A DNA stretch of 64,000 nt, taken from the NCBI GenBank assembly GCA_040755995.1, contig JBFMAF010000016.1:1-64000 (forward strand), written 5' to 3'. The notes beneath the pieces were generated by a model, which saw only the letters and a program-made list of their open reading frames with translations, did not search any database and had not been told where the DNA came from. Shown one piece after another: positions 1 to 17,779 of the stretch (position 1 is its first letter; the number at the start of each line of letters is the position of its first letter). The position numbers and the translations under genes were made by a program. The stretch is from Acidobacteriota bacterium. Lineage in GTDB: Bacteria; Acidobacteriota; CAIWXX01.

Positions 1-3000
1 GCGCGTTCCCCTGGGATCTGCCGATTCCGGCGCAAGACCTTACCCAGTGCTTTGTGAGGATTGTCAATGTAGACGCACCAACGCAGTGGGACCGAAGTGA
101 CACATCGTTCACGATCAAAGCGCAGCAACAGCCGCCTGAACTTCCCAAGCTTCAACTGACTGAGCCGACGGCTGAGGATCGCTGGCAGGTGAGCACCGAG
201 CACAACATCAAGTGGACGGCCACGGGCGACTTCAAGAGCATGGACGTGAAGCTCGAGTACTGGAGCAAGGCCAACGGGTGGAAGCCGATCGCGGGTGGAC
301 TGAACCCGAAGGACGGCGCCTATCCCTGGACGGTTCCGGATGACGCCAACGCGGCCTGCCAGATCTGGATCCACACCGGAAACGGAACGGTCCAGGCCAC
401 GAGCGCTACATTCGCGGTCGTGCCGCTCGAACGGAAGATCACGGTCACGTGGCCGACCGGGTGGGAAGGCGACGATCCCGACACGCCGAGATTCGAGCCG
501 CTTGTGCTCTACGCCGGTGAAACGCGCCAGATCACGATCGACTATGAGAAGATCACGAACGGAGAGGGCATAGAGGTGAGTCTTGTCACGGGTGATGTCG
601 TCCAATGGACCAGAATCTTCGACGAATACAAGACGGTGATCACGTGGGCTCCTGTTGACGATGTGGAGTCGAGCCAGTGCCGGATCGTCGTGAAGGATCG
701 GAGCAGCGCCGCGGAGGGACGCACCGAGCACAACTTCGTGATACACGAGTGCGACCCGACAATCACCCTCCAGTTCCCGGACGGCGGCAACACGCTTGCG
801 GTGAATGAGCCGTGCCAGATCAGATGGGTCTCGACCAAGGCGGCGCAGGTGCCGCAGGTGAGAATCGAGCTCGGCGTGCGTCTGACAGCCAAGCTCATCG
901 AGTGGAATGAGGAGGTCCCGATCGCCGTAGTCGAGAACAAGGAAGGCGTGAACCTCCGTTCCTGGACGCCCGGCGAGACGGGCACGAATCTCGTCGTCAG
1001 GGTCAGAGACGAGCGGGACTACAAGCCACAGGATTTCACGCACAGCTCCTTCACGGTGATCGAGGAACAGACGCAGATCGTTGTGGACGTACCGAACGGG
1101 CCTGAGCACAACATGGTGGTCGGCAGCAAGCGATACATCAAGTGGGCCACGACGGGGCCGAACCGGCCTGACCGGGTCGTCATCAAGCTCACGCGCACAG
1201 GGTCGATGGGGGACGCGACGAAGATACACGAGGAGATCACGGTGGCCAACACGGGCTCATACCCATGGGTGGTCACGGGCCCGCCGTCGGATCACTGCCT
1301 GATCTCCGTAGGCGCCTCCAATGGCATCCCGTGCGATACATCCGACAGGGAGTTCCGCATACTGCAGGATGTCGTGGTCTCCAAACCGCAGGCAGGAGAG
1401 TACGAGATGGGCTCGTTCATGGAGATCAGGTGGACTCCGCGGAACTGGCCGAAGAACGTGAAAGTTCAGCTCCAGCGGGACGGCGGACAGTGGGAGTCGC
1501 TGACGGCGCCCGACACCAGCATCGCGAACGAGGGCAAGATGACGTGGAAAGTGACTGGCTCGGCTTCGCAGAACTGCTATATTAGAGTGAGTGACGCGAA
1601 GGACGGGAAGCCCTTTGGCGATTCCGCGAAGTTCGCGATCGTCCCGAGCGTGAAGGTGCTGTATCCCAACGGGGGCGAACAGCTCATGGTGGGCAAGACG
1701 GTGAAACTCGAATGGGAGACTCGCGGAGCCGTGCCCGAGGTCAGGCTGGAGCTGTCCCGGAACAGGGGTACCACCTGGGAGCTGATTGACGGCAGAACGA
1801 AAGTGCCGAACGACGGCAAGTATGCCTGGACAGTGAAAGGCACGAAGACGTCGAACAACTGCCTGTTCCGCGTGAGCGATCTCGACGGGAAGCCGACCGA
1901 CACGAGCGACAACCTGTTCGCTATCAGGACGGTGAGCACGGCCGGCGCCGCCGGACCCGGCACGCAGGCCGGCGTCGACCTGCTGGTCGGCGACGAGATG
2001 GAGCAGCAGCCTGGTGTTCTACCGTGGAGCAAGCCGTGGCTGGAGGATCTGCCTGGCGGCACGATCTACATCCCGGGCGCCGACGGGCTGGCCGATCGGT
2101 TGTTGCAGGTACCAGAGGACGACGGCGAGTACGTCGGAACCGAGGAGGATTTCGAGAGAGACTTCGGTGGTGTGGAGGAGCCGCCGCCGGGCGACACCCC
2201 CGGTGAGCCTGCTCCCGAGCCCGAAGGCGGGGGCGAACCGGAGGTAGCCGGACCGCCCCTCCCCGCGGGCAGCGAGATCACCTACTACATCTATTCCTTC
2301 GACGGCAGGCTTCTGGCCGAATACGACTCGGACGGCTACTGCAACCGGGACTACATCTACGCCGGCAACCGCCTGATCGCCGAATATAAACCGAAGGTGG
2401 GGATCTACCACTTCTACACGCCCGACCAGATCAACACGACGCGCATGATCACGGACCAGGCCGGGAAGATCGTCTACTCCGCCGGCTTCGGTCCATACGG
2501 CAACGAGCAGATCACCTGGGTCGACAAGTGCAGCCCAGCGCTGAAGTTCTCAGGCAAAGAGCGCGACCGCGACACCACCTTCGACTACTTTGGCGCGCGC
2601 CACTACGCCAGCTCGCAGCGCAGGTGGATCTCGCCGGATCCTGTAAAAGCCCAAAGCGAGGCGATCCACGATCCCCAATCGTGGAATCTCTATGCCTACT
2701 GTCGGAACAACCCCGTGACGCTGCTCGATCCCGATGGACGAAAGATCGATTATCAAAATCCGCAGGTCAGGATCTTCGTGGAGTACCTCGCCAGCAGGAG
2801 CCGGGCGGTCCGTGACACCCTTGCCCGGTATGACGCCGATGACGACCCTGATCTCCGGATCGAACAGGTCGAACTCGGAGAGAACGCGGATGGAGAGCTG
2901 GCGGGGTTGTTCATCCCGGACTGGGGCGAATTTACGATGGATTCCCCACCCGGATCAGGGAACTGGGAGGCTCTGCGTGGGCTCACCGAAGACCAGATCA

Positions 3001-3311
3001 TGGCAGGAAGGGCTAGTGGCAACCTGCTCACCTCCGTCGCTCTTACGGGTGGCACTCTGCAACTGGATTCCTCTCTCGATCTCAACATTGATCCATCGGG
3101 AAAGAGCAGGGACTTCCGGCAGGCGATCAGCGACGCCTTGCATGAGTTCGGGCACGGCGAGCTCGCAGCAAGGGATCCACTCCGGTTCTACCGGCTCAGC
3201 CAAGCCGTCAACCAGATGAGAGACGGTGTGAGACAGGCGCACGACGAGCGCGAGATCGAACAAGACGCGAACCGGTATCGAGACAGTGCTCTGCGGGACT
3301 TCCAGAGGTAG
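1..3311 (+). CDS. Rhs-core polymorphic toxin unit 1 (5'-partial): Ig-like repeats, acidic linker, Rhs core, HExxH metallopeptidase-like tip
   Basis: Frame is open from base 3, and window base 1 aligns to ~13834 in unit 4. Rhs core motifs YYIYSFDGRLLAEYD, KFSGKERD, YFGARHY, WISPDP...NPVTLLDPDG (2727-2738). Tip 2739-3311 has ALHEFGH (3141-3155) and a later EQDA. Confidence 0.9.
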   Translation, partial: AFPWDLPIPAQDLTQCFVRIVNVDAPTQWDRSDTSFTIKAQQQPPELPKLQLTEPTAEDRWQVSTEHNIKWTATGDFKSMDVKLEYWSKANGWKPIAGGLNPKDGAYPWTVPDDANAACQIWIHTGNGTVQATSATFAVVPLERKITVTWPTGWEGDDPDTPRFEPLVLYAGETRQITIDYEKITNGEGIEVSLVTGDVVQWTRIFDEYKTVITWAPVDDVESSQCRIVVKDRSSAAEGRTEHNFVIHECDPTITLQFPDGGNTLAVNEPCQIRWVSTKAAQVPQVRIELGVRLTAKLIEWNEEVPIAVVENKEGVNLRSWTPGETGTNLVVRVRDERDYKPQDFTHSSFTVIEEQTQIVVDVPNGPEHNMVVGSKRYIKWATTGPNRPDRVVIKLTRTGSMGDATKIHEEITVANTGSYPWVVTGPPSDHCLISVGASNGIPCDTSDREFRILQDVVVSKPQAGEYEMGSFMEIRWTPRNWPKNVKVQLQRDGGQWESLTAPDTSIANEGKMTWKVTGSASQNCYIRVSDAKDGKPFGDSAKFAIVPSVKVLYPNGGEQLMVGKTVKLEWETRGAVPEVRLELSRNRGTTWELIDGRTKVPNDGKYAWTVKGTKTSNNCLFRVSDLDGKPTDTSDNLFAIRTVSTAGAAGPGTQAGVDLLVGDEMEQQPGVLPWSKPWLEDLPGGTIYIPGADGLADRLLQVPEDDGEYVGTEEDFERDFGGVEEPPPGDTPGEPAPEPEGGGEPEVAGPPLPAGSEITYYIYSFDGRLLAEYDSDGYCNRDYIYAGNRLIAEYKPKVGIYHFYTPDQINTTRMITDQAGKIVYSAGFGPYGNEQITWVDKCSPALKFSGKERDRDTTFDYFGARHYASSQRRWISPDPVKAQSEAIHDPQSWNLYAYCRNNPVTLLDPDGRKIDYQNPQVRIFVEYLASRSRAVRDTLARYDADDDPDLRIEQVELGENADGELAGLFIPDWGEFTMDSPPGSGNWEALRGLTEDQIMAGRASGNLLTSVALTGGTLQLDSSLDLNIDPSGKSRDFRQAISDALHEFGHGELAARDPLRFYRLSQAVNQMRDGVRQAHDEREIEQDANRYRDSALRDFQR

Positions 3312-3320
3312 GTGGTCTGA

Positions 3321-3827
3321 ATGAGAAAGACAAGCGGCCTCCTGATCGTGGTGTCTTGCCTCTGCACCGGCCATTGTGCCTGGCGGCATGGCCCGTCCGA
3401 GGCACCCAAGAAGGCATACTCGCCCAACCCGTTCACGCTGCGCATCCACGTGTGGCCAGCAACAGCTGCGCCCGGTGAAACTCTGGCACTTGAGTATGTC
3501 CTCACAAACACCAGCGACAACTCCGTCGATGCTTGTCTACACGATCGAGGCGAGTATGGAATCTGGGCAGCAGGTGAGCCGGCACCGCTACATGGTCATC
3601 TTGGTGGTGGAGCCCTGGACGGTCCAGCAGCTAACACCATCTTCACACTCCCTCCACATACTAGCCTTGTGTGGCGGAGTGAGGTAACGATGCCGGATGT
3701 CCGGGCTGGCCCGGCCAAGGTGTACGGCACGTTCACTTCCTCATGCGAACTCTGGGCGGGCACGGTGTTCTCCGATTCCGTGGTCATCACGATCAAGTCT
3801 CAGACCCGACCTCTCGGCGAGCGGTGA
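3321..3827 (+). CDS. putative immunity protein 1, exported or lipoprotein-like
   Basis: Starts 9 nt after the toxin 1 stop. Basic-hydrophobic N-terminus ending in Cys (MRKTSGLLIVVSCLCTGHC). Immunity role is inferred from position. Confidence 0.65.
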   Translation: MRKTSGLLIVVSCLCTGHCAWRHGPSEAPKKAYSPNPFTLRIHVWPATAAPGETLALEYVLTNTSDNSVDACLHDRGEYGIWAAGEPAPLHGHLGGGALDGPAANTIFTLPPHTSLVWRSEVTMPDVRAGPAKVYGTFTSSCELWAGTVFSDSVVITIKSQTRPLGER

Positions 3828-3914: not shown

Positions 3915-5186
3915 GTGCAGATGATGGTCGCGGAAGAGATGGAGCAGCAACCCGGGGCCCTGCCGTGGAGCAAGCCCTGGCTGGAGGATCTGCCTGGCGG
4001 CACGATCTACATCCCCGGTGTCGACGGCCTCGCCGATCGCGTCCTGCAGGTGCCTGAGGACGATGACGAGTACGCCGGGACCGAGGAGGATTTCGAGAGA
4101 GACTTCGGCGGTGTGCAGGAGCCGCCACCCGCCGACCCAGGCGGTGATGCTCCTCCTTCTGGTGACCCTGGAGAAGGTGGCGACCCGGAGGTAGCCGGGC
4201 CGCCGCTCCCCGCTGGCAGCGAGATCGTCTACTACATTTACTCCTTCGACGGGAAGCTTCTAGCCGAATACGACGCCGACGGAAACTGCAACCGCGACTA
4301 CATCTACGCCGGCAACCGCCTGATCGCCGAACATAAACCGAAGGTGGGCATCTACCACTTCTACACGCCCGACCAGATCAACACGACGCGCATGATCACG
4401 GACCAGGCCGGGAAGATCGTCTACTCCGCCGCCTTCGGCCCGTATGGCGGCGAACAGATCACGTGGGTGGACAAGTGCAACCCCGCGCTGAAGTTCTCCG
4501 GCAAAGAGCGCGACCGCGACACCACCTTCGACTACTTTGGCGCGCGCCATTACGCGAGCTCCCAGGGCAGGTGGATCAGCCCGGACCCGATCAGGAACAA
4601 GCAATTGGCTATCTGGACCCCGCAGTTGTGGAACCTCTACTCGTACTGCAGGAACAATCCGATCACGTTTGTGGATCCCGATGGGAGCCTAGAGGATCAG
4701 CAGGGTCCGGTGGATCCGGAATGGCAGGGTCCAGAATTGCCCGAAGTACTCACGGATCAGATTCCACGGGACGTAAGAGCACAGATGGCAGCCGCCATAC
4801 ACGACAGCGATTCACCGACCGGGGACGACAAGAAGGGGGGATTCCATGAGGAGTCCGGCGTAGCGGGGCGGAATCTATCAGGCGAATGGGTTGTATCGCG
4901 TGACAAGCCTGGTCCTTACGGGGATCCGGATGAGGTCGACACACTGCACCCATCTCGAGAGCCCCTGAACGTAGACGAAAGAAACTCAATAGTGAATCCT
5001 ATCGTATTCTTCCATGTGCATCCCTCAGGAAGAACCAAGAAGGGCAACGTATGGGTGCAGGAACCGTCGGTCGCAGACACCGCTGCCGCGATTCCAGGAA
5101 CCATAAATATCGTATTCGGTGCACGCAACAAGAAAGCGTACTACTATAATAGGTGGACTCTCATTGGGGAACCGATGAGGAGATGA
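3915..5186 (+). CDS. orphan Rhs cassette 2 with JAB/MPN-like C-terminal toxin
   Basis: Homology to unit 1 begins only at the acidic linker (EMEQQPGALPWSKPW). Rhs core ends DPDG at 4674-4685. Tip has HEESG ... FFHVHPSG ... PSVAD, matching the JAMM motif E..HxHP..PSxxD. Confidence 0.85.
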   Translation: MQMMVAEEMEQQPGALPWSKPWLEDLPGGTIYIPGVDGLADRVLQVPEDDDEYAGTEEDFERDFGGVQEPPPADPGGDAPPSGDPGEGGDPEVAGPPLPAGSEIVYYIYSFDGKLLAEYDADGNCNRDYIYAGNRLIAEHKPKVGIYHFYTPDQINTTRMITDQAGKIVYSAAFGPYGGEQITWVDKCNPALKFSGKERDRDTTFDYFGARHYASSQGRWISPDPIRNKQLAIWTPQLWNLYSYCRNNPITFVDPDGSLEDQQGPVDPEWQGPELPEVLTDQIPRDVRAQMAAAIHDSDSPTGDDKKGGFHEESGVAGRNLSGEWVVSRDKPGPYGDPDEVDTLHPSREPLNVDERNSIVNPIVFFHVHPSGRTKKGNVWVQEPSVADTAAAIPGTINIVFGARNKKAYYYNRWTLIGEPMRR

Positions 5187-5213: not shown

Positions 5214-5678
5214 ATGAGGAGAATTTCAAAGATCGGGACAACTGCTATGTTTCTGCTGGCCCTAGCTCAGTCAAATGCGCAGCAACAACCAATGATCGTG
5301 AATCTGACGGTCATCGACAATGGGAAAGTCACGCCCGCTCCTTCTGAAATACTGCTCAGTTTCAATGATCATTCGTTGCGAATACAGGTCGTAAACGGGA
5401 GTTTTGGCGTTCCTGCCGAGATCGTCGAAGCTAAGACGATAGTACTAGAGACCGATGTGGCGGATAGCCACATTCGACTTACCAAATTGACCGGGAGAGA
5501 CTTCAGAGTCGGCAAGTGGACGCTACGTCTCGCAGATGAGGCCAACGACAAGTACTACGAATGGCCTGGTCCGAAGAACGCCAGGATCCCGTCGACTTGT
5601 ATAGTCGAATTTGATAATGGTCAGACCTGCGCAGCTAGAGCAATGTTCGAAGAGCATTGCCGAACGCGGATGAAGTAG
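5214..5678 (+). CDS. putative immunity protein 2, exported
   Basis: Directly after cassette 2 with a GAGG RBS. Signal-peptide-like MRRISKIGTTAMFLLALAQSNA. A paralogous fragment occurs at ~10510-10675. Confidence 0.7.
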   Translation: MRRISKIGTTAMFLLALAQSNAQQQPMIVNLTVIDNGKVTPAPSEILLSFNDHSLRIQVVNGSFGVPAEIVEAKTIVLETDVADSHIRLTKLTGRDFRVGKWTLRLADEANDKYYEWPGPKNARIPSTCIVEFDNGQTCAARAMFEEHCRTRMK

Positions 5679-5731: not shown

Positions 5732-5925
5732 ATGGAGGCAACGAGTCCTCCCGTGGTCCACACCGCTCTCGCGTGTCGCGTTGCATCGTTGTTTCTCATC
5801 GTTGGCTGGGTCGAGGCGGCAAGCAGACCGTCTGATGCTGAGCTAGCGGCTGTCACGGAACGCGGTGTTCTCCTGGCCCAGTATGACGCCGCGGCGTGGG
5901 AGGCGACCGACGCGGTAATGGCTAC
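5732..5925 (+). pseudogene. N-terminal fragment of an exported hypothetical protein, truncated by Rhs cassette 3
   Basis: Signal-like segment then PSDAELAAVTERGVLLAQYDAAAWEATDAVMATH, joined out of frame to Rhs sequence at TACTCATGG (unit 1 has TACCCATGG). Confidence 0.45.
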
Positions 5926-8007
5926 TCATGGGTGGTCACGGGCCCGCCGTCGGATCACTGCCTGATCTCCGTAGGCGCCCCGAACGGCATCCCGTGCGAC
6001 ACATCCGACAAGGAGTTCCGCATACTGCAGGATATCGTCGTCTCCAAGCCGCAGGCGGGCGAGCACGAGATGGGCTCGTTCATGGAGATCAGGTGGACCC
6101 CGCGGAACTGGCCGAAGAACGTCAAGGTTGAGCTCCAGCGGGACGGCGGACAGTGGGAGTCGCTGACGGCGCCCGACACCAGCATCGCGAACGAAGGCAA
6201 GATGACGTGGAAAGTGACTGGCTCGGCTTCGCAGAACTGCTATATTAGAGTGAGCGACGCGAAGGACGGGAAGCCGTTTGGAGATTCGGCCAAGTTCGCG
6301 ATCGTCCCGAGCGTGAAGGTGCTGTATCCCAACGGGGGCGAACAGCTCATGGTGGGCAAGACGGTGAAGCTGGAGTGGGAGACTCGCGGATCCGTGCCGA
6401 ATGTGAAGCTTGAGCTGTCGCGGAACAGAGGCACCACCTGGGAGCTGGTTGACGGCAGGGCGAGTGTGCCCAACGACGGCAAGTATGCCTGGACAGTGAA
6501 AGGCACGAAGACGTCGAACAACTGCCTCTTCCGGGTAAGCGATCTCGACGGGAAGCCGACCGACACCAGCGACAACCTGTTCGCTATCAGGACGGTGAGC
6601 ACGGGCGGGGCCGCTGGACCCGGCACGCAGGCCGGCGTCGACATGCTGGTCGGCGATGAGATGGAGCAGCAACCCGGAGCTCTGCCGTGGAGCAAGCCGT
6701 GGCTCGAGGATCTGCCTGGCGGCACGATGTACATCCCGGGCGCCGACGGGCTGGCCGATCGGTTGTTGCAGGTACCAGAGGACGACGGCGAGTACGTCGG
6801 GACCGAGGAGGATTTCGAGAGGGACTTCGGCGGTGTGGAGCAGCCGCCGCCGGGCGACACCCCCGGTGAGCCTGCTCCCGAGCCCGAAGGCGGGGGCGAA
6901 CCGGAGGTAGCCGGACCGCCCCTCCCCGCGGGCAGCGAGATCACCTACTACATCTACTCCTTCGACGGCAGGCTCTTGGCCGAATACGACTCAGACGGCT
7001 ACTGCAACCGCGACTACATCTACGCCGGCAACCGCCTGATCGCCGAATACAAACCGAAGGTGGGCATCTACCACTTCTACACGCCCGACCAGATCAACAC
7101 CACGCGGATCATCACCGATCAAGCGGGTCAGATCGCCTACTCCGCCGCTCATGGCCCATTTGGCAACGAGCAGATCACCTGGGTCGACAAGTACAACCCC
7201 GCGCTGAAGTTCTCCGGCAAAGAGCGCGACCCCGACACCACCTTCGACTACTTCGGCGCGCGCTACTTCGCCAGCACGCAGCGCAGGTGGATCTCGCCAG
7301 ATCCCATCGTCGGCGTCGGTGATGCGATGGCCATTCCACAGCGTTGGAACCTGTATGCATACGTCGCCAACAACCCCATCACCTACCTCGATCCGAACGG
7401 TATGTACATGTTCGCCAACGGAACCGCCGAGCAAAGGGAAGCCTTCCAGGAAGCCCTCGACCAGGAGTGCCAGAAGTTGTCAGAGATGACTGGTGAAGAG
7501 AAGGTTGCCGCTGAGATCGCGATCGGAGCATACGGAGAACCTTACGAAGACAATGGGGTCTGGGTCGTCTTCGGGGACCCAGGGGGCGGACGTGGTGGGG
7601 CAACAGATAGCCACTTACTACCAGATCTTGGCTCCTTTTCTACCGTCACGATCTCCCCCGATCTGAGCGGCACCGACCTAACCATCGTGATGGCTCACGA
7701 GGGCAGTCACGTCGCCGACCACCAGCGCTTCTCGGCCGCCGTGAGAAGCGTGAGCCCCACCGACAGCTCTATCATCGGGTCAGATCAATTCGATCTCACC
7801 AGATACGCGACAGAGGTGCGGGCATACGGGGTGAGCGCCTTTGTGGCCAACAGCTTAGGACAGGAGGAAGGCGTTTATGGACGGAAAAATCGCACGATCT
7901 TCAAAAGAGGCAAACTCAATATGGGGGACCTCAACAAATACCTGAAAGAGGAATACGAGGGGCTGTCCCCGGAGTCGCCGGGTAGGCGGCTGAGTGGTTT
8001 CGAGTAG
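5896..8007 (+). CDS. orphan Rhs cassette 3 with HExxH metallopeptidase-like tip
   Basis: Near-identical to 1259-2640 from ~5923, starting mid Ig-repeat 5 with no credible start codon. Core ends DPNG at 7390-7401. Tip has MAHEGSH (7696-7710) and TEVRAY. Confidence 0.85.
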   Translation: MGGDRRGNGYSWVVTGPPSDHCLISVGAPNGIPCDTSDKEFRILQDIVVSKPQAGEHEMGSFMEIRWTPRNWPKNVKVELQRDGGQWESLTAPDTSIANEGKMTWKVTGSASQNCYIRVSDAKDGKPFGDSAKFAIVPSVKVLYPNGGEQLMVGKTVKLEWETRGSVPNVKLELSRNRGTTWELVDGRASVPNDGKYAWTVKGTKTSNNCLFRVSDLDGKPTDTSDNLFAIRTVSTGGAAGPGTQAGVDMLVGDEMEQQPGALPWSKPWLEDLPGGTMYIPGADGLADRLLQVPEDDGEYVGTEEDFERDFGGVEQPPPGDTPGEPAPEPEGGGEPEVAGPPLPAGSEITYYIYSFDGRLLAEYDSDGYCNRDYIYAGNRLIAEYKPKVGIYHFYTPDQINTTRIITDQAGQIAYSAAHGPFGNEQITWVDKYNPALKFSGKERDPDTTFDYFGARYFASTQRRWISPDPIVGVGDAMAIPQRWNLYAYVANNPITYLDPNGMYMFANGTAEQREAFQEALDQECQKLSEMTGEEKVAAEIAIGAYGEPYEDNGVWVVFGDPGGGRGGATDSHLLPDLGSFSTVTISPDLSGTDLTIVMAHEGSHVADHQRFSAAVRSVSPTDSSIIGSDQFDLTRYATEVRAYGVSAFVANSLGQEEGVYGRKNRTIFKRGKLNMGDLNKYLKEEYEGLSPESPGRRLSGFE

Positions 8008-8019
8008 GAGGGAGTAAAG

Positions 8020-8694
8020 ATGTTCTCTATAACGAGATTACCGACAAGCAGGGGGCGCAGCATGGCTCACCAACTTGCAATTGGCCTGATTCGCGTGGTC
8101 GCCGCGTTGTCACTGATCCTGGCTCAAGCTAGCGAATTCCCATCGCCCGAATGTGTCGCCAGAGTGACAGACAAGCAAGAACGCCCCCAATTCATTCGAT
8201 TCGAGCAAGTCCTGCCAGCCACCGGAGGCCCGATAGGGGGCTACTACCTTGAGGCGGCTAAGGGCACACCTGTTGTTTGGTTGCGCCTCCACAACAACAC
8301 AACGTGTCCAATCGCCCTATCGATGACTCATACGTATGTCCGGATCGAGGCTGGGCGAAATGCGACTCATGTGCTGGAGGGCGAGCCGGTCGACATCTGC
8401 TTTGACTTGGAAGACCCCACCGGGAAGGGGCGGATCAGCCACTGCGGTGGCCACACTTTCGGGATGGCTCGACTTCCTGGAGGCTCCTCGCTTCTGTTTG
8501 GTGTGCCCGCAGAGTACTTAAGAAGAGGCTATCTAGTCTCCGTTCCTTTCGTGTATGAGTGGGAAGGCATCGTCTTCATAAGGACACGCGCGCTGAGAAG
8601 GACAACAGTGTTTGGACCCAACGAATTGCCGGCTTCAGTCCAGAATGAGCTCGGTATTTCGTTGGAACCCGCACAAGGAGATGACAACGACTAA
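8020..8694 (+). CDS. putative immunity protein 3, exported (start may be ATG 8062)
   Basis: Immediately after the cassette 3 stop with a GGAGGGAG RBS. Signal-like MAHQLAIGLIRVVAALSLILAQA. Confidence 0.65.
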   Translation: MFSITRLPTSRGRSMAHQLAIGLIRVVAALSLILAQASEFPSPECVARVTDKQERPQFIRFEQVLPATGGPIGGYYLEAAKGTPVVWLRLHNNTTCPIALSMTHTYVRIEAGRNATHVLEGEPVDICFDLEDPTGKGRISHCGGHTFGMARLPGGSSLLFGVPAEYLRRGYLVSVPFVYEWEGIVFIRTRALRRTTVFGPNELPASVQNELGISLEPAQGDDND

Positions 8695-9072: not shown

Positions 9073-10041
9073 ATGCGCACACAAGATCGCGTCGTACGAG
9101 GGTACAGAACCTCATGCCGCGTTGTCCTTCTCGCGGTAACTATTCTTGCTTTTGGCGCCGCCCGCCAGTCCCGACTGCAGGCGCGGGTGGAAGAACCGGG
9201 AACGCAGGTCGAAGTTTCCCGGCAGATGGCCCATTACATTGTTTTCGAAAAGCATGCTGACGGGACAGCCGTCCCAGTGTACTACCGGTTGGTCGAGCTG
9301 GCCGGGCCTCTGACGACCTTGACAGGCAGCCGGATGGCGGGCGTGCTGACGTCTTCTCCGCGAAACACCGAGCCCATTGGAGTCAGCCTGCAGAACGAAG
9401 CCGGGCAGGTGGTCTACCAGAATGCCGTCCAGTTATCTCGGTGGCTGCGCGGCGAGTTCCGCGCCGAGACATCGCCGGGCGCAACCATCGATGGGCACCT
9501 GATCCCTCTTGAAACAGTCTCATTTGTTGTGCGTGTTCCGCAAATCCCAGGGACGACTCTGGTCTTGCAGAACTCTAGTCTCGAATTCATCGGGCGTTTC
9601 GACATGCAGCAATTGGCGAGCCAGACACCCACAATCCGATTGGATACCTCGATTGAAGTGGGTAGCCTGGGAGCCACCGGGCCAGCAAGCAATCGCGAGG
9701 ATCTTCTCATAATGGGAGATGGCTACACCGCTGCGCAGGAATCAATATTCCTGAGCGACGCTGCCTGGGTGGGTGCGGAGTTCTTTTCCATCTCACCTTA
9801 TTCCGTCTATCGCAACTACTACAACCTTCACACCCTGTTTACCCCTTCCAAGCAGTCGGGGGCAGATCATCCTCGCTATGATCCAGCCTGCGGTACTACC
9901 GACCCCAGCTGCTGCAGCGATCCCGCGATGCAGTCGGACCCCCTGCAAGGCAGGAATGTCTGGAGTGATAATCCTCTCGGCAAGGAATTGTTCAGGCACG
10001 AGTTTACTATTCTCCCGAAGGCTACGACGCGTGAGAGATGA
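9073..10041 (+). pseudogene. truncated M64 (IgA peptidase-like) metallopeptidase
   Basis: Signal peptide, then NREDLLIMGDGYTAAQ...FFSISPYSVYRNYYN...SKQSGADHP typical of the M64 N-terminal half. The ORF ends before any HExxH. Confidence 0.6.
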
Positions 10042-11481
10042 CCTGGGTCGACAAGTGCAACCCCGCGCTGTGGTTCTCCGGCAAAGGGTGCGCCCGCCAC
10101 ACCAAGTCCCACGGGCCATGGATCTCGCCGGATCCGGTGAAAGCCCGAAGCGATGCGATCCACCATCCTCAATCGTCGAATCTCTATGCCTACTGTCGGA
10201 ACAGCCCCGTGACCCTGCTGGACCCTGATGGACGAGCGATCGATTATCAGAACGACCCGGTCAGGCTGTTCGTGGAGTACCTCGCGACCAGGAACCGGGC
10301 CGTGCGTGACACCCTTGCCCGGTATGACGCCGATCACGAGCCTGATCTCCGGATCGAACAGGTCGAACGCGAGGCCAACGCCGACGGAGAGCTGGCCGGG
10401 TTCTTCATCCCGGGCTGGGGCGACTATACGATGGATTCCCCATCCGGATCAGGGAACTGGGAGGCTCTGCGTGGGCTCACTGAAGAAGAGATCATGGCAG
10501 GAAGGGCTATTAGAGACCGACATCGAGAACTGCCACATGCGACTTACCAAAGTGGAAGGGAGAGACTTCAAAGCCACCAGATGGACGCGTCGTCTCGGAG
10601 AAGAGGCCAATGAAGAGTACTATGACTGGCCTGGTCCTGAACGCGCCGACATTCCGTCAACTTGTATGCTCGAAACTCTCCCGGGGGAGGAGCAGGTGGA
10701 CCTGCTGGTCGGCGATGAGATGGAGCAGCAGCCCGGAGCTCTGCCGTGGAGCAAGCCATGGCTCGATCTGCCTGGCGGTACGATCTGGCGAGTGCACAAG
10801 TACCATGAGCAGCTCCAGAATGCCTACGAGCCGCTTCAGCAATACCCCACTCCTGGGGTACTCCTGTCCTGTCGGCCAGGAGGCCGAGGTTGCCAGTTGG
10901 CACGACATGGAACATGCTCAAAGGGCCCCAACCCAGAGAGATCATGGTCGCCGGTGACGGGGCGCTGTACCTGCTTTACAGACCTCCGTACACTGCGTGG
11001 TCACGATACCTCCCCTACCTCGTGGCAGTCATCTTGAGAAGACCTGAGCCCGTGGAGGTAAGTATTGATCCAGGTACCCGCTTGCCCGCGTTCAGAGCAG
11101 TCCACGCCGGCGACTATCCCTACAACCATGGCGTCGGCATCGGAGACCTTCGCCCGCTTCGTACAGATCGAGAAGCGCGGGACCGTGATCGGTAACCGTA
11201 CCGCGGGCGCTGTCACGCAAGCCGTCTACCATGGACATCATCTGGGCGTGGATATCGTGACTGTTTACGGAGCCAGTATCACAGACGCGGATGTGATCAT
11301 GTCCGATGCGAAGAGCCTGGAGAAGGTGGGCGTCCTGCCCGATGAGCTACTGCTCCCCACGGCCGAGGATCTCGCTGCCAGACGCGACCCGGTGCTCGCG
11401 CGAGCAGTGGAGCTGGCTGGCACGAGCATCGATGCGGCGAAAGCCGGAAGCCTCTTCCCACTCGAATGGCAGGACTACTAG
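10038..11481 (+). pseudogene. mosaic relic: Rhs core/toxin 1, immunity 2, Rhs linker, immunity 4 homolog and S41 C-terminus fragments
   Basis: 10038-10510 resembles 2513-3015; 10510-10675 resembles 5445-5610; 10693-10785 is the linker QPGALPWSKPW; 10786-11020 has YRPPYTAWSRYLPYL like 17150-17674; 11130-11481 resembles 18800-19147. Confidence 0.85.
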
Positions 11482-11617
11482 CGGGGGAGTCGCACTACGG
11501 TGAGGCCGGATGAGGAAGTCCAGATGCCCGCCGACAACGACAGGGACCGGCAGCCCGGAGCGCTCCCATCGCCTCAGAAGAGGCTGACCAAGCTATGCGC
11601 GCCCCTGCTGATGCTCT

Positions 11618-12169: not shown

Positions 12170-12532
12170 TCAGGTGCCTGGATGCAGAGGAGCCATCCGC
12201 ACGCGATCGTCTTCGACCACGGCGAAGTGCCCTTCCCAATCGCTGCGGGAGTCTAGGGCTGCGAGGGCAAGGCGTGCCACATGCGCGGCAGAGGGAGCGG
12301 AGATCCGGAAGAGAACGACCCCTGTCGGAGGTTCCAGCCCAAGCCTGAAGACGAGCTCGCCGAAATCCTTGTCGAACGTGATCAACACTCGGCCTTCAGC
12401 CCGCGCAAGTGCGAGAACCGCCAGATCGGTACTCCCAGGCGCCTCTGTGCGAATCCACAACACATCGTGGCCACTGCTGCGAAGTGCCTGAACGGCATCG
12501 CCCGGGAAGTTCTCGTCGGCCAGTATCCGCAT
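12170..12532 (-). CDS. DUF5615 (PIN-like) toxin
   Basis: MRILADENFP...D..VL..A..EGRVLITFDKDFGEL signature. Confidence 0.9.
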   Translation of the reverse strand: MRILADENFPGDAVQALRSSGHDVLWIRTEAPGSTDLAVLALARAEGRVLITFDKDFGELVFRLGLEPPTGVVLFRISAPSAAHVARLALAALDSRSDWEGHFAVVEDDRVRMAPLHPGT

Positions 12533-12535
12533 TCG

Positions 12536-12766
12536 TCAAGCGGAGAGGGGGTATACCCTCTCCGCTCTCAGCACCAGGCTGGCGTAGTCGAGGCAGGCTC
12601 GCAGGTCGTCCTGGGTCAGCCCCGGATAGTTGCGGAGTATCTCTTCTTCCCTCCAGCCTTGGGCCAAGAGGTCGATGAGGAAATCGACGGCCAGGCGCGT
12701 CCCCCTGACGATGGGCTTCCCGACGAGGATGTCTGGATCGATCACGATCCGATCTGGCCACTTCAT
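12536..12766 (-). CDS. DUF433 antitoxin
   Basis: RIVIDPDILVGKPIVRGTRLAV...ILRNYPGLTQDDLRACLDYA. GAAGGAGGA RBS before ATG 12766 and a TATAAT at 12800-12805 on the minus strand. Confidence 0.9.
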   Translation of the reverse strand: MKWPDRIVIDPDILVGKPIVRGTRLAVDFLIDLLAQGWREEEILRNYPGLTQDDLRACLDYASLVLRAERVYPLSA

Positions 12767-12942
12767 GATTCCTCCTTCGATCGCTGCGCCGACCTCCCAA
12801 TTATACGCAACTGATGCCGTGCAATCCATGGAATGTCGGCGTTGTGGCGTTGACCACCTCACCCCGGCAATCGTCCAGAAGTTGGGCATGGAGCCTCCAC
12901 CGTTGCCGTTCATCCTCGCGCCGGGCGCGATGACCGTGTTGG

Positions 12943-13428
12943 ATGAATGATGAATGGGGTCATCATGCCCGCCGCTTCGCCCTCAAGGCGCTGAATACCC
13001 CACTCAACGGCCGAATGGAATACGGGTACGAGTCGCACGATTTCATTGGCCTGTGCGAAGAGGTCGAGGGTCCTGAGGTTTCTCGCAGCAGGTGCGATTC
13101 ATTCGTGCTGGCGAGCAAGACCGCACACTTCGGCTTCGGGGGCGGAACGAAGACCTGGGGCTACGACTATCCTTCATACGACACTCCGACGGTCGGGTCC
13201 GAAAACGACACGGTGACCGTCACGGGCCCCGAATACGTCATGAAAGTGAGATACAACAACGGGCCGACCGACCCCTCTTGGAAGCACGGCCTGATCGCAG
13301 CGAAGTGGTACGCCGACGGTAGTTTCCGGGAGGAGTACGAATGGGAGGCGGAGGTACTAGCAATCTGGATCGCAAGGTGTGGGAGGGAACGGCGACAAGC
13401 TATGAGTACAACCATAGCAACCAGCTGA
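12943..13428 (+). pseudogene. fragment of the early Rhs/YD-repeat region
   Basis: LKALNTPLNGRMEYGYESHDF and KTWGYDY are YD-like. Joined out of frame (~13365) to late YD repeats of 13341-17156, consistent with a large internal deletion. Confidence 0.55.
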
Positions 13429-16400
13429 AGAAGGTCGATTCCGGCGACGAGACCGTCGAGTATTTCTACGACGACGGAAAGGGCCGAGTGAATCGAGTCG
13501 TCAGCACGAAGGGATGGAGCCGCAAGGGAATCGACTACAATGACTTCGGATCCGCCAAGACAGAGATCGTGAACCCCGGCGGCGACCTCATGACCTGGTA
13601 TTCCTATGACGATCGCGGTCTCCGTTTCAAGACGGTCCGGCTGCCGCAGACCCAGCATGGAACGCTCCACCTCACCTACCCCAACGGTGGAGAGGTTCTG
13701 CAGGGCGGAGAGGTGTGCACTATCACGTGGGACCCGGTGCCCGCGGGTGTCGAGTACCTCAAGATCGAGTGGCGCCAGGGTGGTGGAGACTGGCAACAGA
13801 TTCCTGGTGGTGAGCAGTGGGTCGCGAGCGTGGGCGCGTTCCCCTGGGATCTGCCGATTCCGGCGCAAGACCTTACCCAGTGCTTTGTGAGGATTGTCAA
13901 TGTAGACGCACCAACGCAGTGGGACCGAAGTGACACATCGTTCACGATCAAAGCGCAGCAGCAGCCGCCTGAACTTCCCAAGCTTCAACTGGCTGAGCCG
14001 ACGGCTGAGGATCGCTGGCAGGTGAGCACCGAGCACAACATCAAGTGGACGGCCACGGGCGACTTCAAGAGCATGGACGTGAAGCTCGAGTACTGGAGCA
14101 AGGCCAACGGATGGAAGCCGATCGCGGGCGGACTGAACCCGAAGGACGGCGCCTATCCCTGGACGGTTCTGGATGACGCCAACGCGGCCTGCCAGATCTG
14201 GATCCACACCGGAAACGGAACGGTCGAGGCCACGAGCGCTACATTCGCGGTCGTGCCGCTCGAACGGAAGATCACGGTGACGTGGCCGACTGGGTGGGAA
14301 GGCGACGATCCCGAAACGTCGAGGCTCGAATCACTCGTCCTCTTCGCGGGCGAGCCCCGCCAGATCACGATCGACTATGACAAGATCACCTATGGCAAGG
14401 GTGTCGAGGTGAGCCTTGTCATTGCCGGCGTGGTCAAGTGGACCAGATTGTTGGACCAGTACAAGACGGTGGTGGACTGGACCGTGGATGACGTGGAGTC
14501 GCCTGAATGCAAGATCGTCGTGAAGGACCGCAGCAGCGCGGCGGAGGGTCGTACCGAACGCAACTTCGTGATACACGAGTACGATCCGACGATCGACCTC
14601 CAATTCCCCGACGGCGGGAACACGCTCGCGGTGAATCAGCCGTGCGAGATCAGGTGGGTCTCGACGAAGGCGGCCAGGGTGCCGCTGGTCAGGATCGAGC
14701 TGGGCGTCCGAGTCGCGCCCAAGCTCATCGAGTGGAATGAGGAGACACCGATCGCCGTTGTCGAGAACAAGGAAGGCGTGAACCTCTATTCCTGGACGCC
14801 CACCGAGCCCGGCACGAACCTGGTCGTCAGGGTCAGAGACGACCGGGACTACAAGCCACAGGATTTCACGCACAGCTCGTTCACGGTGATCGAGGAACAG
14901 ACGCAGATCGTTGTGGACGTACCGAACGGGCCTGAGCACAACATGGTGGTCGGCACCAAGCGATACATCAAGTGGGCCACGACGGGGCCGAACCGGCCTG
15001 ACCAGGTCGTCATCAAGCTCACGCGCACGGGGTCGATGGGGGATGCGACGAAGATACACGAGGAGATCACGGTGGCCAACACGGGCTCGTACCCATGGGT
15101 TGTGACGGGCGCGCCCTCGGATCATTGCCTGATCTGGGTAGGCGCCCCCAATGGCATCCCGTGCGATACATCCGACAAGGAGTTCCGCATACTGCAGGAT
15201 GTCGTCGTGTCCAAGCCCCAGGCCGGAGAGTACGAGATGGGCTCGTTCATGGAGATCAGGTGGACCCCGCGGAACTGGCCGAAGAACGTCAAGGTTGAGC
15301 TCCAGCGGGACGGCGGACAGTTGGAGTCGCTGACTGCGCCCGACACCAGCATCGCGAACGAAGGCAAGATGACGTGGAAAGTGACTGGCTCGGCTTCGCA
15401 GAACTGCTATATTAGAGTGAGTGACGCGAAGGACGGGAAGCCGTTTGGCGATTCCGCGAAGTTCGCGATCGTCCCGAGCGTGAGGGTGCTGTATCCCAAC
15501 GGGGGCGAACAGCTCATGGTGGGCAAGACGGTGAAGCTCGAATGGGAGACTCGCGGAGCAGTGCCGGAAGTCAGGCTGGAGCTGTCCCGGAACAGAGGCA
15601 CGACATGGGAGCTCATCGACGGCAGAACGAAGGTGCCGAATGACGGCAAGTATGCCTGGACAGTGAAAGGCACGAAGACGTCGAACAACTGCCTGTTCCG
15701 CGTGAGCGATCTCGACGGGAAACCGACCGACACCAGCGACAATCTGTTCGCTATCAGGACGGTGGGCACGGCCGGCGCCGCCGGACCCGGCACGCAGGCC
15801 GGCGTCGACATGCTGGTCGGCGATGAGATGGAGCAGCAACCGGGGGCTCTGCCGTGGAGCAAGCCCTGGCTGGAGGATCTGCCGGCCGGCACGGTCTACA
15901 TCCCGGGCGCCGACGGGATGGCCGATCGCCTGCTGCAGGTGCCTGAGGACGATGGCGAGTACGTCGGGACCGAGGAGGATTTCGAGAGAGACTTCGGCGG
16001 TGTGGTGGAGCCGCCTCCGCCCGGCACGGGCGGTGACACTCCTCCCTCTGGTGACCCCGGAGAAGGGGGCGAACCGGAGCTAGCCGGACCGCCCTTCCCC
16101 GCGGGCAGCGAGATCACCTACTACATCTATTCCTTCGACGGCAGGCTTCTGGCCGAATACGACTCGGACGGCTACTGCAACCGCGACTACATCTACGCCG
16201 GCAACCGCCTGATCGCCGAATATAAACCGAAGGTGGGCATCTACCACTTCTACACGCCCGACCAGATCAACACTACGCGCATGATCACGGACCAGGCCGG
16301 GAAGATCCTCTACTCCGCCGGCTTCGGTCCATACGGCAACGAGCAGATCACCTGGGTCGACAAGTGCAGCCCCGCGCTGAAGTTCTCCGGCAAAGAGCGC

Positions 16401-17156
16401 GACCGCGACACGGGCTTCGACTACTACGGCGCGCGCTACTTCGCGAGCACGCAGCACCGCTGGATCTCGCCGGATCCCGTCAGGACTCAGGACGCCGCGG
16501 TCGCCACTCCCCAGATGTGGAACCTCTACTCTTACGTGGCAAACAACCCAATCTCCCTGACCGATCCCGATGGCCGGGTGATAGAGCTGAAATACGACCC
16601 TGCCCAACGCGCTGCTCAGCTCAGGTTCATCCGCAGTGTCCTGGGTAACAAGGGCCAGCATGTCACAGATGTCTGGAAGAACGGCGAGTGGATTCTGAGT
16701 GTCACAGGTATGGGCAGGAAGGATTTCGCCAAGTTCGGGGTAGCCGAGCTAGCTCTAGCTCACTTGATGAGGAGCTCGGGAACGTTCAAGCTCGAGCTGG
16801 GCCGCAGTCGCGAGACAGTCTTAAACGACGGCGGCGCATTCCTTGCGGACAAGAAAGGAGGAGGAACGATATACATGGACCCGGTGGAGTGGAATTGGTA
16901 CGGCGGCTATCACCAGTCGCCTCAAGACCGCTTTGTACATGAGATGGGCCACGCATTGATGGAAGTCGTGGCTGACCCATCATATTGGCGCTTGGGAAGT
17001 TCCAAAGCCGGCCTGTTGTTTAGGCCCCGGGAGCTCTATGGGATGGCCGCAGAGAATGCATATCTGGCACAAACCAATCGTCGCCGCCCCTACTACGATA
17101 GGCCCACTGACTACGAGCGACCTCAAAGCGGGACTGAGGAGATACCGCAATGGTGA
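13341..17156 (+). CDS. Rhs unit 4: late YD repeats, 7 Ig-like repeats, linker, Rhs core, HExxH (M91/Tox-MPTase-like) tip; probably N-terminally truncated
   Basis: TSYEYNHSNQL, YFYDDGKGRV and YSYDDRGLR repeats; YPNGGE-type repeats; DPDG at 16563-16574; FVHEMGH (16938-16952) followed by AAEN..R.YY. Confidence 0.88.
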   Translation: MGGGGTSNLDRKVWEGTATSYEYNHSNQLKKVDSGDETVEYFYDDGKGRVNRVVSTKGWSRKGIDYNDFGSAKTEIVNPGGDLMTWYSYDDRGLRFKTVRLPQTQHGTLHLTYPNGGEVLQGGEVCTITWDPVPAGVEYLKIEWRQGGGDWQQIPGGEQWVASVGAFPWDLPIPAQDLTQCFVRIVNVDAPTQWDRSDTSFTIKAQQQPPELPKLQLAEPTAEDRWQVSTEHNIKWTATGDFKSMDVKLEYWSKANGWKPIAGGLNPKDGAYPWTVLDDANAACQIWIHTGNGTVEATSATFAVVPLERKITVTWPTGWEGDDPETSRLESLVLFAGEPRQITIDYDKITYGKGVEVSLVIAGVVKWTRLLDQYKTVVDWTVDDVESPECKIVVKDRSSAAEGRTERNFVIHEYDPTIDLQFPDGGNTLAVNQPCEIRWVSTKAARVPLVRIELGVRVAPKLIEWNEETPIAVVENKEGVNLYSWTPTEPGTNLVVRVRDDRDYKPQDFTHSSFTVIEEQTQIVVDVPNGPEHNMVVGTKRYIKWATTGPNRPDQVVIKLTRTGSMGDATKIHEEITVANTGSYPWVVTGAPSDHCLIWVGAPNGIPCDTSDKEFRILQDVVVSKPQAGEYEMGSFMEIRWTPRNWPKNVKVELQRDGGQLESLTAPDTSIANEGKMTWKVTGSASQNCYIRVSDAKDGKPFGDSAKFAIVPSVRVLYPNGGEQLMVGKTVKLEWETRGAVPEVRLELSRNRGTTWELIDGRTKVPNDGKYAWTVKGTKTSNNCLFRVSDLDGKPTDTSDNLFAIRTVGTAGAAGPGTQAGVDMLVGDEMEQQPGALPWSKPWLEDLPAGTVYIPGADGMADRLLQVPEDDGEYVGTEEDFERDFGGVVEPPPPGTGGDTPPSGDPGEGGEPELAGPPFPAGSEITYYIYSFDGRLLAEYDSDGYCNRDYIYAGNRLIAEYKPKVGIYHFYTPDQINTTRMITDQAGKILYSAGFGPYGNEQITWVDKCSPALKFSGKERDRDTGFDYYGARYFASTQHRWISPDPVRTQDAAVATPQMWNLYSYVANNPISLTDPDGRVIELKYDPAQRAAQLRFIRSVLGNKGQHVTDVWKNGEWILSVTGMGRKDFAKFGVAELALAHLMRSSGTFKLELGRSRETVLNDGGAFLADKKGGGTIYMDPVEWNWYGGYHQSPQDRFVHEMGHALMEVVADPSYWRLGSSKAGLLFRPRELYGMAAENAYLAQTNRRRPYYDRPTDYERPQSGTEEIPQW

Positions 17157-17674
17157 ATCAACCAATGGCCCACGAAAGCCCCGGACGCATTGCACATCTC
17201 AAGATCTTGCTATCCCAGCGCCGGGTCAAGATTCTCGGGTTGCTTATAGGCGCGGTTGTCGTCCTTGGCACCATAGACAGGATGTCCCTGATGATCTGGC
17301 GCTGGAGGGTGGCGCACCAATATGTGATCTACAAGGAGGCATGCGAAGCCACGCAAGGCCCGGACCCGGAGTATGGGATCGTCGGTTGGTCACCGCCGTC
17401 ATCCGAATTCCCCGTCCGACTGATATGGGTGCGCTCAATAGGTCCGCACCCGTACGGGATAGTGGTCGACGGGGGAGGAGGACTTACCCTGTTCTACACA
17501 CCGCCGTACCTCGCTTGGTCGCGATACCTGCCATATCTAACTGACCGGAGCACTTATGGCCAACCCGGTGTCTACCCTTATGACGACGTCTATCTCATTA
17601 GTTTGGAGCTCAGGGATGATCGGGGGAAAGACCTACAACGCCCTCAGGTTAGCCTCGAACATGGGCTTCCGTAG
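17150..17674 (+). CDS. putative immunity protein 4, membrane-anchored
   Basis: Overlaps the toxin 4 stop. Single hydrophobic segment ILGLLIGAVVVLGTI. Diverged homolog fragment at 10786-11020. Confidence 0.65.
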   Translation: MVNQPMAHESPGRIAHLKILLSQRRVKILGLLIGAVVVLGTIDRMSLMIWRWRVAHQYVIYKEACEATQGPDPEYGIVGWSPPSSEFPVRLIWVRSIGPHPYGIVVDGGGGLTLFYTPPYLAWSRYLPYLTDRSTYGQPGVYPYDDVYLISLELRDDRGKDLQRPQVSLEHGLP

Positions 17675-17779
17675 TTGTTTGGCGGGCGAGAGCGATGGCC
17701 TGCAGACTCTCGCACGCGGTTCGGCGAACACGCTACGCGAGAGAGGTCGCAACTCATCATTCTCGCCCGAGGAGGACAA

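Follow-up and report, generated by a model that had tools for sequence, protein, structure and literature searches.

The window (the whole 64,000-nucleotide stretch analysed, G000:C16:1-64000) begins with an array of four Rhs units bearing four differing tips, each followed by an ORF of 154-224 aa. The core model TIGR03696 scores above its cut-off in all four units, and the Rhs core motifs PDP...DPxG are present. The start of contig C16 has the same 124 bases as the end of C31, and this exact overlap makes unit 1 the 3' half of a parent gene begun on C31. Length arithmetic across the join gives a parent of ~2309 aa, consisting of a hydrophobic signal, DUF6531, YD repeats, an insertion site (here the slot, at aa ~1143) with seven Ig-like domains, a linker, the core and a tip with HEFGH. 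The features of the array are listed below in window coordinates, unless a contig is named.

G000:C31:143356-147107: parent 5' half with signal, DUF6531, shell and Ig1 (C31/C16 overlap)
3..3311, + strand: unit 1, parent 3' half, Ig2-Ig7 and linker (end overlap, Pfam, motifs)
2280-2738, + strand: unit 1 plug/core (motifs/Pfam)
2739-3308, + strand: unit 1 tip, HEFGH at 3141-3155 (motif)
3321..3827, + strand: putative immunity protein 1, N-terminal hydrophobic stretch, exported or lipoprotein-like (position, hydropathy)
3915..5186, + strand: unit 2, orphan cassette of linker, core (4227-4685) and JAB-like tip (HVHPS 5013-5027); homology to the parent from ~3900, i.e. at the linker
5214..5678, + strand: putative immunity protein 2, signal-like N-terminus (ORF position, hydropathy)
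5896..8007, + strand: unit 3, orphan cassette of part of Ig5, Ig6-7, linker, core (6943-7401) and HEGSH tip; homology to the parent from 5923, inside Ig5 (blastn self-comparison)
8020..8694, + strand: putative immunity protein 3, signal-like N-terminus (ORF position, hydropathy)
10036..11487, + strand: scrambled relics (this and the next four by blastn self-comparison)
10036-10509, + strand: relic, unit-1-like core/tip piece
10508-10674, + strand: relic, immunity-2 piece
10696-10786, + strand: relic, linker piece
11130-11487, + strand: relic, S41 peptidase 3' piece
12965-13358 and 13362-13574, + strand: two remnants of parent shell DNA heading unit 4 (85% and 90% identity to C31)
16575..17156, + strand: unit 4 tip, HEMGH zinc-metallopeptidase-like domain (motif)
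17150..17674, + strand: putative immunity protein 4, N-terminal hydrophobic stretch (ORF position, hydropathy)

Unit 4 is the ORF 13341-17156 (1271 aa). Rather than being complete, the gene joins three segments of the parent (aa ~307-438, ~840-910 and 1121 onward), with two internal deletions, and has no signal peptide; judged by its sequence it is an internally deleted relic of the parent. Tips 1, 3 and 4 bear HExxH and tip 2 HxHPS (motif search). Pfam gave no name to any of the four; the JAB label of tip 2, likewise unmatched in Pfam, is a comparison of its motif with the Tox-JAB pattern given in Zhang et al., 2012 (PMC3482391). For tip 4 the Atlas features lead, at 0.95, to a cluster in which 27% of members carry M91, which serves as a lead only. 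The small ORF after each tip has an N-terminal hydrophobic, signal-like stretch by hydropathy (4/4). Immunity protein 1 has two unnamed homologues at ~50% and no Pfam match, and a complex prediction of tip 1 with immunity protein 1 scored 0.14 against a mark of 0.32.

Several other genes lie in or near the Rhs loci. An S41 tail-specific peptidase (17675-19147) follows immunity protein 4 and has a 3' duplicate among the relics (11065-11481), and an M64 peptidase fragment with a signal peptide is fused against an Rhs core relic (9073-10041). Toxin-antitoxin pairs of DUF433/DUF5615 type occur inside or beside three Rhs loci: at 12170-12913 of the window (minus strand, by Pfam) and, by eye, at G000:C28:22770-23454 and after the C24 paralogue. 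Primase and recombinase-like genes (by eye) stand directly 3' of Rhs or teneurin-like loci (G000:C28:24023-28886 and C16:129017-131170), which suggests an integrating element that favours such sites.

An earlier note on this DNA had reported two Rhs strands lying far apart in unit 4, and YSYDDRGLRFKT and TYYIYSFDGRLLAEYD are separated by 827 aa in this ORF, as set out below.

13599..13634, + strand: shell strand before the slot, YSYDDRGLRFKT, aa 87-98
13659..15758, + strand: seven Kre9/KNH-type Ig-like domains in the hairpin (Pfam; paralogue model)
13659-13952, 13980-14255, 14265-14576, 14586-14891, 14907-15194, 15201-15473 and 15477-15758, + strand: Ig1-Ig7
15759..16115, + strand: acidic G/P-rich return linker, 119 aa, predicted disordered (composition; paralogue pLDDT <50)
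16116-16163, + strand: strand after the slot, TYYIYSFDGRLLAEYD, aa 926-941
16116..16574, + strand: strand after the slot and Rhs plug/core, with WISPDP (16461) and DPDG (16563-16574)

The slot lies where the plug begins, ~153 aa ahead of DPxG, and the TIGR03696 core is at aa 997-1078. The seven ~100-aa repeats of the earlier note were recovered as seven beta-rich repeats of 91-104 aa, and its D/E/P/G-rich linker as 119 aa rich in G, P, E and D. Of its (Y/F)PNGG-like repeat starts, only those of Ig1 and Ig7 are a literal YPNGG; that of Ig4 is FPDGG. Plain BLASTP self-comparison gave no repeat-to-repeat match among the Ig domains; against shuffles, 16 of the 21 repeat pairs reach z>=3, with 19-37 identities per pair, and the five pairs below z 3 all involve Ig3 or Ig2-Ig3. 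We regard the similarity among the seven repeats as weak but real. Pfam Kre9_KNH exceeds its cut-off for the whole protein (40.5 against 24.6 bits).

The insert, or its distal part, had been assigned to units 1-3 as well. This is correct for unit 1 (Ig2-7, with Ig1 on C31) and unit 3 (part of Ig5 plus Ig6-7), but unit 2 holds the linker only. Three insert-bearing paralogous loci are found elsewhere in the genome: C28 is whole (G000:C28:15322-22311; 2331 aa, 7 Ig), C3 has its 5' end off the contig and six Ig matches, and C24 stops after Ig7, without a core. An assembly artefact was rejected as the source of the insert, which occurs in four loci of the genome and in 66/71 homologues, as was an intein or mobile element, for which there was no Pfam/NCBIfam match, the cargo being surface-protein domains. 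The genome also encodes similar Ig domains in secreted proteins that are unrelated to the array, such as that at 19457-21394 of the window. In the C28 and C24 paralogues the hairpin preceding the main slot bears another acidic loop, of ~30 aa (P0001 aa ~1135-1165; P0058).

The C28 paralogue (aa ~966-2162) was modelled with AlphaFold, using a 43-row alignment that included insert-less rows (mean pLDDT 69.9, pTM 0.39, linker <50). Across model positions 1-1188, 311 residues superpose on 4IGL_D 276-690 (Z 22.6, rmsd 3.1); as the flanks measure only ~208 and ~155 aa, both must contribute. The proposal that the insert is grafted into a loop of the Rhs shell next to the plug is supported by this paralogue model, whose two flanks superpose together on solved shells (Z 14-24). 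All 26 YD-shell entries among the matches listed are matched over spans of ~335-415 residues, so none of them has a large insert at the slot. The Ig parts match FnIII/Ig domains at Z ~9. Foldseek with the whole model returned multi-Ig proteins only (TM ~0.1), and phmmer against the PDB with an insert-less member gave two weak matches, neither covering the slot. Both flanks are predicted to form one shell with the Ig arm outside it, an arm position suggested by size: the Rhs cavity measures about 28,000 cubic angstroms in the structure described in PMC8636562, against ~700 folded residues here. From the sequences compared, the slot is a hairpin of the last shell turn, real and variable.

A search with the core region yielded 57 proteins and one with the shell 150, and flank profiles placed both strands in 71; this set leaves out one-flank fragments, P0017, P0057, P0058 and distant matches. 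The gap between the strands is 2, 6, 16, 16 or 27 aa in five homologues, 96-98 aa in six, 339-888 aa in 54 and 1512-2525 aa in six, so that 66/71 hold an insert of at least 90 aa and 5/71 only 2-27 aa. P0025, with two residues between the strands, reads straight through; distant signal-peptide Rhs proteins have 5-8 residues at the position of the slot, and the genome's own three long teneurin-like YD proteins have about six residues between the corresponding strands.

The cargo of the slot varies. The first cargo is a Kre9-type Ig in 19 members, an ASH-type Ig in 40 and FG-GAP/ASPIC only in one, and some inserts add FG-GAP or LVIVD repeats. All six single-Ig inserts lack the strand that closes a full repeat; ending there would return both chain ends to the shell. 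Among inserts of at least 90 aa, a jelly-roll module of ~230 aa is present in 50 of 66. It is modelled as an Ig with a jelly-roll nested inside (pLDDT 87.5, pTM 0.88), its best match is a lectin wing of Vibrio cholerae sialidase (378-541; Z 13.6, rmsd 2.8, 153 residues), and its Atlas features lead to DUF6645 and sialidase-like CBM clusters. The module may be called lectin-like by predicted fold, a likeness that does not in itself show sugar binding. The window's own insert has Ig domains only, without this module. Scaling of linker length with Ig number was tested in the homologues and not seen, and their linkers have no conserved cleavage motif.

The best 34 genome loci comprise 24 under the names Ca. 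Aminicenantes, Aminicenantia or Saccharicenans, one under Acidobacteriota and nine with other labels. Among 60 relatives only G057, which belongs to the same phylum, has left flank, Ig and core matches in one frame (2095 aa), a whole member that suggests an acidobacterial origin for the window; the two genomes of the same family gave weak matches only. Phage records gave two weak matches, to the core only. The 67 tips of relatives compared are diverse. Tip domains met in relatives include M15, M23, YkuD and DUF5675, and some tips have a cytoplasmic look (Ntox28, Ntox33).

The earlier note had also proposed that receptor binding travels with each toxin cassette. This is not supported by comparison of the units, in which the orphans are nested 3' fragments of a conserved insert, with no, 2.5 or 7 Ig domains. 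Orphan inserts are 77-99% identical to the parent (pN/pS <0.45); between units 1 and 4, Ig2-7 are 97, 77, 87, 94, 98 and 99% identical, with pN/pS of 0.02-0.42. The C28 and C24 paralogues are 65-92% identical in the Ig domains and 55-60% in the shell. Hypervariable receptor domains were looked for in units and paralogues and not seen, with purifying selection on the Ig domains. Ig3 is the least conserved domain in both pairs (65% in C28/C24), a weak hint of a binding face. The more variable Ig3-4 patch of units 1 and 4 (77%, 87%) has a high pS and probably came in by recombination. In relatives, orphans start mostly in the linker or core. Dissociated tip arrays made by homologous recombination have been described (Jackson et al. 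2009, PMC2935791), and the orphan pattern fits C-terminal displacement as set out there, with the insert as a homology arm.

A quick tree was built from shell and core with the insert removed (68/71 members, three being too short, and eight outgroup rows; SH-aLRT only). Insert presence requires three changes on it, most simply one gain and two losses, and single-Ig forms fall in two clades. Since the five cargo-less relatives keep core and tip, with two losses on the tree, the arm is dispensable. Cargo class tracks the shell lineage, needing 7 changes where shuffling gives a mean of 34.6, and near-identical shells bear differing tips.

For export, the parent carries a Sec-type signal followed directly by DUF6531 (aa 49-142), with no PAAR, and its 5' half matches RHS_repeat at 53.9 bits. 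By hydropathy only, a signal-like stretch precedes the N-terminal motif in 46 of the 49 homologues with that motif, the other three being cut short. PAAR, VipB, TssF and phage sheath gave no match in the genome (99.84% complete; proteobacterial-type T6SS models), and among carrier genomes, whose completeness is not stated, VipB/TssC is found in 0/21 and PAAR in 1/21. The suggestion of a T6SS-independent system therefore stands as regards the signal and the lack of any PAAR, sheath or baseplate gene found, but has to be qualified by two VgrG-like and two Hcp-like genes in the genome. The VgrG-like genes (G000:C36:158077-160005, C28:201228-202838) score below cut-off and have no sheath or baseplate neighbours; the Hcp-like genes (C38:1092-1568, C10:388192-388551) stand alone, one with a signal-like N-terminus. 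No SpvB match was found in the parent 5' half and no NHL match in parent aa 1-1143. The array is an Rhs polymorphic toxin, not one of T6SS type or a teneurin-like one.

All three own-genome Ig-insert Rhs genes with an intact 5' end follow a gene for a TPR protein which we take to be cohesin-like. It resembles the genome's secretins at both ends but has no pore domain; secretin matches number seven in the genome, and full secretin genes precede three teneurin-like YD genes.

G000:C31:142227-143234, C28:14183-15202 and C24:243205-244395: TPR/cohesin-like lipoprotein genes directly before the Ig-insert Rhs genes
G000:C16:119006-127780, C24:369722-373937 and C29:59817-66298: dedicated secretin genes directly 5' of the teneurin-like YD genes

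These neighbours make a type II-like exit likely for the Ig-insert Rhs proteins. By eye, no secretin-like upstream gene was seen in the 10 loci of relatives inspected.

The shell/plug junction may also be a place where genes are split. In a sister group, 18/25 proteins examined run >300 aa past a second site three strands after the slot. Two of these 18 keep a core (P0227, and P0228, where ~620 aa of BACON/FG-GAP/Fn3 come first); the remaining 16 close with adhesin modules and show no recognisable core. Core-less Rhs shells that end in adhesin modules include P0191, P0197, P0198, P0205, P0206, P0214-P0217, P0229, P0243, P0251, P0267, P0272, P0280 and P0282. Conversely, 5/35 core frames in the fetched loci have their own signal-like start, which in L032 lies exactly before the strand after the slot and in the other four at the site three strands later; stand-alone genes of signal peptide, plug and tip are seen at L080:1-2787, L069, L074, L079 and L032. 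At L080, the locus of a close relative of one core-less sister protein, a gene of this kind comes immediately after one that encodes a shell-adhesin without core, and a small ORF is next in line; this pairing of shell and plug is known from one locus. It suggests that the plug can be a separate chain, and core-less shells with stand-alone plug genes are possible two-chain Rhs proteins.

The array thus combines a signal-peptide Rhs without PAAR, an insert at a fixed slot whose cargo varies over 71 homologues, and orphan cassettes. To explain it we favour, at about even chances, a Sec-signal Rhs whose Ig arm sits in the last hairpin before the plug, outside the shell, and putatively holds the secreted capsule to a cell surface. 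The protein would be exported by Sec and then by a type II-like secretin, and would cleave itself at DPxG; the arm would provide contact in place of a PAAR/VgrG spike. The signal-like N-termini of all four downstream genes point to the envelope or periplasm of neighbouring bacteria as the place where the HExxH and JAB-like tips would act. Orphans would be silent reservoirs whose tips swap into the parent by recombination in insert, linker or core, their Ig copies serving as homology arms. The cargo is of adhesion type (Kre9 Ig, ASH Ig, FG-GAP, LVIVD, jelly-roll). The conservation of the Ig domains, unlike that of fast-changing receptor binders, would count against the arm as a target binder. 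It is in keeping with a possibility that we consider unlikely without being far-fetched, namely that the arm is a self-anchor, fixing the capsule to the surface or matrix of its producer in the way that cell-wall-binding or lipoprotein modules work in other secreted Rhs, target choice lying in the shell or tip. The Ig domains are conserved between cassettes and between paralogues, T9SS-tagged surface proteins contain long arrays of this Ig type, and with DUF6531 straight after the signal the family has no N-terminal anchor. However, the alternation in the slot of a lectin-like module, FG-GAP propellers and two unrelated Ig types is more variety than a self-anchor of fixed kind needs, and arm-less members exist.

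The position of the slot at the start of the plug would also suit an arm that is a mechanical handle, where load or a cut in the linker loosens the plug and frees the tip, the seam being the parting point. The signal-like starts of core frames and the L080 pair agree with this, as do relatives with 16-17 Ig matches whose tails of 53-75 aa could not reach back down a stalk of that length if it were straight. We nevertheless hold it improbable: the linkers have no conserved cleavage motif, arm-less members presumably still release their tips, and the pairing of a shell with a separate plug is known from a single locus. It is more improbable still that the hairpin merely tolerates insertions, with surface Ig modules abundant in the lineage piling up there to little effect on delivery. 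Losses of the insert on the tree and similar Ig domains in unrelated secreted proteins are what this would predict, but the insert is kept in 66/71 members, pN/pS is 0.02-0.42, and no single-Ig member has the last strand, so that the chain returns to the shell, a tailored arrangement with origins in two clades. The earlier note's own reading, in which each cassette carries a receptor-binding arm matched to its toxin, now seems very improbable. The divergence of Ig3-4 between units 1 and 4 and of Ig3 in C28/C24 speaks for it; against it, unit 2 has no Ig, unit 3 has only distal Ig domains that are 93-99% conserved, most orphans in relatives begin in linker or core, and insert class follows the shell lineage while tips differ between near-identical shells.

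The favoured surface-holding arm has relatives among known systems, and to call it an undescribed system, as the earlier note did, is too strong: signal-peptide Rhs toxins and shell-inserted domains are both in print. Rhs polymorphic toxins of the general secretory pathway are known (Zhang et al. 2012, PMC3482391), with Myxococcus Rhs4/5 and WapA as examples (PMC10433427), and adhesion domains embedded in Rhs repeats are reported in both papers. The passages available from these sources give no defined slot, Ig arrays or structural placement, whereas in the present family a single hairpin accommodates 0-2500 aa drawn from several cargo types. Mosquito SGS1 has a solved Rhs/YD shell whose outer face bears domains inserted in the repeats, two of them Ig-like sugar-binding folds, according to the parts of PMC9935623 consulted; it differs in being eukaryotic, in having single domains at other places and in lacking a polymorphic toxin array. 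Its last insert ends at 2465 and its C-terminal moiety starts at 2734 (residue numbers as read in that paper), against ~153 aa here, and SGS1 is absent from the listed fold matches of our model. Bacterial teneurin-like proteins share Sec-type signals, adhesion domains, a YD shell, polymorphic toxic tips and occurrence in Acidobacteriota, but in the sections seen of PMC13018210 their adhesion modules are N-terminal and they have an FN-plug/NHL superfold; the matched span of their shell (PDB 9IFO, 1810-2144) has no interruption. T6SS Rhs effectors (Photorhabdus Rhs1, 7PQ5, PMC8636562; 8QJA, 8QJC, Tse5) have the shell, the plug with bipartite DP motifs and the encapsulated tip in common with the array; they differ, in the text of PMC8636562 accessible to us, in an N-terminal PAAR/VgrG adaptor, a chaperone and the absence of a signal peptide, and their structures have no insert in the matched span. 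Tc toxin BC shares the shell fold, but the parent 5' half has no SpvB match. Dissociated-tip arrays are common to Rhs C-terminal displacement as outlined in the portions seen of PMC2935791; here the homology arms reach into the adhesin insert. Neither the slot nor its cargo series nor the split form turned up in the open literature (titles, abstracts and passages; subscription papers and supplements, e.g. the study behind 8QJA/8QJC, lie outside this scope).

It is conceivable, if rather doubtful, that across a large Sec-secreted Rhs lineage of Acidobacteriota the shell/plug junction is a modular seam, which either takes a swappable targeting arm (Ig stalk, lectin or propellers) in place of the T6SS spike or is cut to give separate plug-plus-toxin cartridges loaded in trans. 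The window would then be the one-chain form, and L080 and L032 the two-chain form. At one hairpin the family offers a natural series of arms, ranging from none at all up to 17 Ig domains, some with a lectin-like tip and some lacking it, and this makes the role of the arm testable. The plug end of an Rhs shell tolerates insertions of 2,500 residues and perhaps a break in the chain as well, a matter of interest for plug opening. The family also suggests that sediment and digester Acidobacteriota, which are mostly without T6SS markers, possess a contact-dependent weapon.
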